From a virus (taxonomy: Duplodnaviria > Heunggongvirae > Uroviricota > Caudoviricetes): DNA of 64,000 nucleotides. Numbering within the stretch: the stretch's first letter is position 1; each line of letters starts with the position of its first letter. Shown here in pieces: positions 63,189 to 64,000 of the stretch. The DNA lies in the IMG/VR virus record IMGVR_UViG_2923350032_000001, positions 750 to 64,749 of that record; one strand, 5' to 3'. The notes beneath the pieces were generated by a model that was given only the letters and a program-made list of their open reading frames with translations, did no database searches and was not told the origin of the DNA. A program made the translations under genes and the position numbers.

Positions 63189-64000
63189 CTATATTTTTCC
63201 GCCTACGCCTTTAAACTTCTCAATAAACGAGACGATTTTCTGGAAAACTGCCTGTTTTTTCGTTTTATATTGCGGATTTAACGGACTAAGTTTTGGTAAT
63301 GTTTCGTTTAATTCTGTGCCATTTTCGGTGGCGTATTCGCGTTTTAAAGACGTGCGAATATAGCGTTTTGCTGCCTCTTCATTGAGATTTTCTTCTTTTA
63401 TCAATGCTTCTGCTTCACGTTGCTGTTCGCGTTGAGCAAACGTAAAGAATGCGTCAATGATGCTGGCTTTGTCCGGTAAATCATCCAGGTTCGTTTGCTG
63501 AATAAAATCGACCACCAGGCCCTCTTTAGCACGGTTCCCCAGGCTTGAACGAATTAAGCGTTTGACCTCTTCGATCATTTCGCCCTTGCCTTTATTTTGT
63601 CTGTTGTGTTCGAAAATCAGTCCAAGGATATAATCCAGGTTTATTTCCTGAGACTTCAGCAAATCGACCTCAAAAACTACGTCATCCCAGTCAGTGGTTG
63701 ATTTCTCTTTTTTCTCAGCTTCTTTCTCACGGCGCTGCCAGTCGCGAATATCGTTATAGGCAGAACGATAATCCTGAATCTTGCGATCAGCAGGGAGACG
63801 AATTGTTTGCAATTCAGCGAACTTTTCATCATCCACATAATGTTCTGCTTTGAATTTTTCTACCGCAACAGGATCGCTAAGATCGATTTGTTGCAGGGCT
63901 TTCAGCGTGGCAAATTCATCATAGTTTTGCAGGATGTTCTCGGCACGCAGGTATTCGCCAAACAGTTTAACGAAGTCTTTCTTCTCTTTTTCACTTTCAA
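63189..64000 (-). CDS. C-terminal portion of a large protein, proposed HsdR C-terminal domain; 5' part lies beyond window end
   Basis: open minus-strand frame from window edge to stop at 63189; same strand as the hsdR fragment at window start. Confidence 0.5.

Follow-up and report, generated by a model that had tools for sequence, protein, structure and literature searches.

A reduced P1-like element of about 65 kb whose record probably ends inside a single hsdR gene

The stretch of DNA analyzed here (64,000 nucleotides, hereafter the window) very probably comes from a circular, IncY P1-like replicon of about 64,750 bp, the ends of whose record fall inside the type IC gene hsdR. The window is collinear with two sibling plasmids round the whole circle, at 99.98% to 100% identity barring IS elements and one large deletion, and its edges lie 750 bp apart in both. 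A circle of about 64,750 bp is the simplest reading, because a 64,000-base window of such a circle necessarily has edges separated by that distance. An earlier note on this DNA had proposed a circular replicon slightly larger than the window, with 0.7 to 0.8 kb of hsdR missing, and the siblings bear out both the layout and the length; physical closure of the circle we infer from the collinearity, the size of the gap being that seen in the relatives. Coordinates of the main features are collected in Table 1.

Table 1. Main features of the window. Positions are those of the 64,000-nucleotide stretch.
Feature	Position	Strand	Remarks
hsdR, 5' part	1..1553	-	codons 1-518, start ATG 1553-1551; from alignment to HsdR and Pfam
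hsdS	1675..2805	-	376 aa, intact; two TAEL repeats
hsdM	2802..4358	-	intact; 518 aa as annotated in pL9-1
loxP	12978-13011	+	exact 34-bp match
cre	13430-14461		adjoins loxP; mapped from pL9-1 annotation
Deletion junction	19406..20503		IS26 fragment and complete IS26 replacing sibling DNA
P1-type plasmid replicon	38677..39889		repA and flanking iterons; sibling pL9-1 typed IncY
repA	38868-39728	-	within the replicon
Iteron arrays flanking repA	38677-38757 and 39785-39889
IS91-family element	57250..58938		in pmgP, directly after a CTTG site
Spacer, hsdR stop to resumed P1 homology	63114..63188		P1 84482 corresponds to window 63113
hsdR, 3' end	63189..64000	-	codons 770-1038 and stop TAG 63189-63191

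Both edges of the window probably lie in one hsdR gene

The minus-strand frame that enters from beyond the right edge ends exactly where the earlier note had placed its stop. Its codon phase begins at position 63998 and it is stop-free down to the terminal TAG, the bases at 63999-64000 being the final two of hsdR codon 769. The encoded fragment (window 63192-63998, 269 aa) contains the Pfam domain EcoR124_C (PF12008; E = 1.7e-63, profile positions 34-260 of 260), is 100% identical to residues 770-1038 of the HsdR of plasmid pL9-1, and matches the same residues of EcoR124I HsdR (PDB 2w00) with a single substitution (268 of 269 identities), which answers the comparison with HsdR C-terminal domains that had been suggested as a check. 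That the right-edge fragment belongs to another protein family is ruled out by the EcoR124_C match together with the EcoR124I HsdR alignment, and that it is a chance open frame by the complete identity across 269 residues.

At the left edge, HsdR residues 1-518 align to minus-strand positions 1553-2 and the gene runs off position 1, which is the first base of codon 519; the reading phase is consistent across the gap. This part carries the N-terminal HSDR_N domain followed by SWI2_SNF2/ResIII, the first motor lobe (Pfam; window 795-1553 and 2-427), in pieces that are 99% to 100% identical to the HsdR of pL9-1. The hsdR fragment described earlier at position 1 does run off the edge, but it is split into three frames (see below). 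Because the pieces at both edges are 99% to 100% identical to one annotated 1038-residue HsdR, the match is far beyond chance, and the proposal that the two edges belong to a single gene is supported: together they hold residues 770-1038 and 1-518 of one protein. What is missing between them corresponds to residues 519-769. The T1R_D3-like second motor lobe (residues 536-707) is encoded entirely by the 750 bp that the window lacks and is present in both siblings, and the unseen DNA would thus encode this lobe and the beginning of EcoR124_C.

Judged from these alignments, the gene is essentially a known EcoR124-family (type IC) HsdR. The 1038-aa protein of the sibling aligns end to end with the type IC motor-nuclease subunit of EcoR124I/EcoR124II (PDB 2w00, 4be7), and the domain architecture is the same here, namely, HSDR_N, SWI2_SNF2/ResIII, T1R_D3-like (seen in the siblings), and EcoR124_C. 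In contrast to EcoR124, hsdR of the window has two 1-bp deletions, with translation ending after residue 253, and its cassette sits in a P1-like backbone, whereas that of EcoR124 is in R124. The gene is common, with more than 800 plasmid records matching most of the left-edge query.

Collinearity with sibling plasmids and probable closure of the circle

The closest relatives of the window are two Escherichia coli plasmids, pL9-1 (NZ_CP142045.1; 133,989 bp, circular, IncY) and pEC85-4-128k (NZ_CP158185.1; 128,094 bp), here called the siblings, which are IncY P1-like multiresistance phage-plasmids. The best database matches to both edges were found in one record, that of pL9-1, where window position 64000 corresponds to 44404 and position 1 to 43653 on the same strand, within one 3117-bp hsdR. 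The corresponding positions in pEC85-4-128k are 103824 and 103073, likewise 750 bp apart, and the intervening DNA is uninterrupted and identical in the two plasmids. Relocation of these 750 bp within the window is ruled out, as they match nothing anywhere in it.

Along pL9-1, window 1-19405 corresponds to 43653 down to 24247, followed by the IS26 block, and window 20501-64000 corresponds to 89299 down to 44404, the IS91 copies being placed differently; the alignment to pEC85-4-128k has the same order and passes the origin of that record at repA. Differences from the siblings in the backbone amount to 1 to 5 substitutions, a T6/T7 homopolymer change at 42267, an 18-bp gain at 22588-22605, and the two 1-bp deletions in hsdR. 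The window shares with the siblings the hsd cassette, a second icd/ant module, and the TnAs3, IS421, and TnpB insertions; it differs from them in the absence of about 65-69 kb (the resistance region and the P1 late genes, from tub round to mat), in having IS91 at another site, in the 18-bp repeat gain, and in the two hsdR frameshifts. The exact sequence patterns across the window-specific junctions (IS26/pmgC and IS91/pmgP) had no match in viral, genome, or metagenome contigs, and a 6-kb query spanning the IS26 junction retrieved no record with at least 80% coverage from the plasmid, complete E. coli genome, or phage collections.

Other arrangements could place pieces of hsdR at both edges. 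In a head-to-tail multimer of the approximately 64.75-kb unit, or in an over-extended or concatenated assembly of it, the edges would lie in successive hsdR copies with the same geometry as in a monomer, and nothing in the window tells the two apart; long-read assemblers do sometimes double small plasmids. Nevertheless, the window carries Cre and an exact loxP, which would resolve true dimers, and no positive evidence for a multimer emerged, so that we regard this arrangement as unlikely; it would in any case leave the unit length and the biology unchanged. Quite unlikely, too, is a closed circle with an additional insertion, such as an IS element, in the unseen part of hsdR, which would make the replicon longer than 64.75 kb and leave the gene interrupted. 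Two private frameshifts have already damaged hsdR and the lineage displays active movement of IS26 and IS91, which would suit such an event, yet the 750 bp are intact and identical in both siblings, and a 64,000-base window drawn from an only slightly longer record fits the simple case.

It is very unlikely that the edges represent two unrelated hsdR remnants, for example, separately truncated copies, on a large linear or chromosomal contig, their fit being coincidental. Type IC hsdR genes of the EcoR124 family are indeed also chromosomal, with 822 such places in a search of complete E. coli genomes, but against this stand the agreement in phase and strand, a residue numbering that breaks off at 518 and resumes at 770, and 100% identity to a single gene, and elsewhere the window keeps throughout to the order of the two circular sibling plasmids. 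Under the preferred reading, that is, a single circle of about 64,750 bp, the window is approximately the whole replicon, and for annotation the edge fragments are best joined as one hsdR rather than recorded as two partial genes.

A P1-like backbone without the late genes

Comparison with phage P1 (NC_005856; 94.8 kb) matched 38.7 kb, mostly at 92% to 99% identity with a few short weaker stretches. The blocks kept are lox-cra-cre-c8-ref, pmgC, c4-icd-ant, kilA-repL, bplB to gene 23, incA-repA-oriR through part of dmt, genes 5 to pap, phd-doc-pdc-lpa-pacAB, and c1-coi-imc; features common to P1 and the window include immI and genes 21-22-23 alongside lox-cre, ref, kilA-repL, repA/oriR/incA, genes 5 to pap, phd-doc, lpa, pacAB, and c1. 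The maintenance set of P1 is present (repA with iterons, par, loxP-cre, and phd-doc), as are its immunity and lytic control genes at 92% to 98% identity (c1/coi, c4-icd-ant, kilA-repL, lpa, and pacAB). The par genes, in contrast, are only approximately 64% identical to those of P1, dmt of P1 is matched only in part, and sim, rlf, and the tRNA-ban block (P1 69293-73138, absent) are missing or replaced, as is pmgT-humD, whose place is taken by the hsd cassette. No tRNA genes were found in the window. The dmt methyltransferase gene of the lineage (approximately 43510-46551) measures 3042 bp, compared with 2265 bp in P1, with the homology to P1 broken mid-gene. A second icd/antirepressor module, 70% to 80% identical to P1 icd-ant, is located at 9924-11392 between pacB and c1; it is common to both siblings and additional to the regular c4-icd-ant at 23186-24762.

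P1 positions 2617-45982 have no counterpart in the window in the comparison with NC_005856. The absent genes include mat, res/mod, lxc, darB, prt, pro, lydD/E, lyz, ssb, ddrA/B, darA, hdf, lydA/B/C, cin, S, U, R, 16, bplA, pmgA, sit, pmgB, and tub, whereas the siblings carry this late-gene block and a mercury and multidrug resistance region. The earlier suggestion of a reduced P1-like element of about 65 kb thus agrees with both the matched and the absent portions of P1.

The missing DNA, about 65-69 kb in the siblings, is replaced at a single junction by IS26 sequence. A 278-bp IS26 end fragment (19406-19683) abuts a complete IS26 (19684-20503) in the opposite orientation, and the outer terminal repeat of the complete copy joins the pmgC-side P1 DNA directly, the exact IS26 end being marked by the boundary between TTTGCAACAGTGCC and CCATATCAG. 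The deletion endpoint thereby coincides with an IS26 terminal inverted repeat, which is what an IS26-mediated adjacent deletion leaves, and we infer this mechanism from the position of the endpoint. A single event of this kind would have removed the resistance region together with about 43 kb of P1 late genes, including those for the portal, head processing, lysis, dar, tail fibres, baseplate, tape measure, and tail tube. The small size of the element would then be accounted for by one deletion ending exactly at the IS26 terminal repeat. The complete IS26 is placed within the initial 278 bp of a second, oppositely oriented IS26. Neither sibling has this fragment-plus-IS26 arrangement at the deletion site; since an unrelated IncFII contig (L011, GCA_900492775.1) has the same arrangement, along with its truncated 77-aa product, the arrangement may have predated the deletion.

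The retained genes would provide for plasmid replication, partition, addiction, Cre-lox recombination, immunity, the lytic replicon, and packaging. No virions would be expected from an element without portal, tail tube, tape measure, tail fibres, holin, and endolysin, and this gene content suggests that it persists as a plasmid, having lost its phage function. With an incomplete set of virion and lysis genes, the element is classified, from its predicted gene repertoire, as a defective P1-derived plasmid and not as a phage. It is a new deletion derivative in a known lineage of P1-like phage-plasmids, with no new mechanism or kind of system. A precedent is MH445381.1 (labelled phage P1; 66,750 bp, circular), in which cre is followed, through a mobile-element gene, directly by gene R. 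Like the window, it is a P1 backbone of roughly 65 kb in which the maintenance functions are kept and a contiguous block after cre/ref is lost; unlike the window, it has other deletion endpoints and junction mobile elements, keeps the genes from R to tub, and is without the hsd cassette. The decay of P1-like phage-plasmids into plasmids by gene loss is a documented pattern (Pfeifer and Rocha 2024, PMC10879196), to which the window adds one more case, with the same kind of outcome and with deletion endpoints and junction mobile elements of its own.

A bolder reading, which we put somewhat short of an even chance, is that the window shows a phage-plasmid that became a plain plasmid very recently, being only 1 to 5 substitutions away from intact siblings. 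A single IS26 event would have stripped it of both its resistance island and its genes for virions and lysis, and the two frameshifts would have knocked out hsdR independently (r- m+). If so, the window and its siblings would form a natural before-and-after pair for asking what selection acts on a P1-like element once it stops being a phage.

The hsd cassette and the frameshifts in hsdR

The cassette has the organization of a type IC locus, with the gene order hsdM-hsdS-hsdR and an HsdS comprising conserved N-terminal, central (TAEL repeat), and C-terminal regions. EcoR124 shares both the gene order and the central TAEL repeat, but the target-recognition domains of HsdS differ, and the sequence recognized is therefore probably different from that of EcoR124. 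The 12-bp repeat TAAGCTCAGCGG, which encodes TAEL on the reverse strand, is present in hsdS at 2286-2313 in two full copies. The copy number of the TAEL repeat sets the length of the recognition-sequence spacer, as between EcoR124I and EcoR124II.

Two 1-bp deletions break the 5' part of hsdR, one at about 818 (GG to G, plus strand) and the other at about 427 (TTTT to TTT, plus strand), so that the frame segments 1553-813, 816-421, and 427-2 align to HsdR residues 1-247, 247-378, and 377-518, respectively. In place of an uninterrupted 1038-codon frame, the gene as written yields a product of 253 aa, for which an exact-protein look-up returned no identical protein on record. In a search of 5,426 complete E. 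coli genomes, none shared the two deletions, and the best matches were 99.6% identical to hsdR and differed by exactly the two gaps. Relative to pL9-1, the 64 kb contain only three single-base indels, two of them in hsdR and the third between annotated genes. As written, then, hsdR reads as a pseudogene next to intact hsdM and hsdS, the hsdM stretch showing no difference from pL9-1. The two deletions could be either a genuine knockout of restriction with modification kept, given that hsdM and hsdS are identical to those of pL9-1, or sequencing errors that cluster close to where the assembled record ends.

In this lineage, the cassette replaces P1 84483-87969 (pmgT to humD), between pap and phd. 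The spacer that follows the hsdR stop holds a 10-bp inverted repeat, CTTGCGGGTT (63145-63154) and AACCCGCAAG (63163-63172), to which a terminator scan gave no score. According to the P1 record, the flanks are shared with DNA around the EcoDXXI and R124/3 hsd loci, the spacer-side flank being the one downstream of them. A match to the C1 operator OpmgT of P1 (ATTGCTCTAATAAATCT) lies at 62921-62937, approximately 250 bp past the 3' end of hsdR and facing it, and is followed on the plus strand by a 28-codon hydrophobic open reading frame (63024-63108). In P1, the promoter region at OpmgT drives pmgT, the gene whose place the hsd cassette has taken.

Other mobile elements and repeats

The IS91-family element in pmgP occupies a position different from that in either sibling, and the truncated PmgP (54 aa) had no identical protein on record in an exact-protein look-up. 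In pEC85-4-128k, a single IS91 copy is found 3.4 kb away, between pap and pmgS, and pL9-1 has two inverted copies elsewhere, giving three IS91 placements in three near-identical plasmids. The 18-bp gain noted above lies in a 9-bp tandem repeat (CACCACCAG) at 22550-22605, which has 6.2 copies, two units more than in pL9-1; the repeat of pEC85-4-128k is different as well. Two further insertions in the P1 backbone, both common to the siblings, are a gene for TnpB, of the RNA-guided endonuclease family, at 46922-48091 and a copy of IS421 at approximately 27900-29030.
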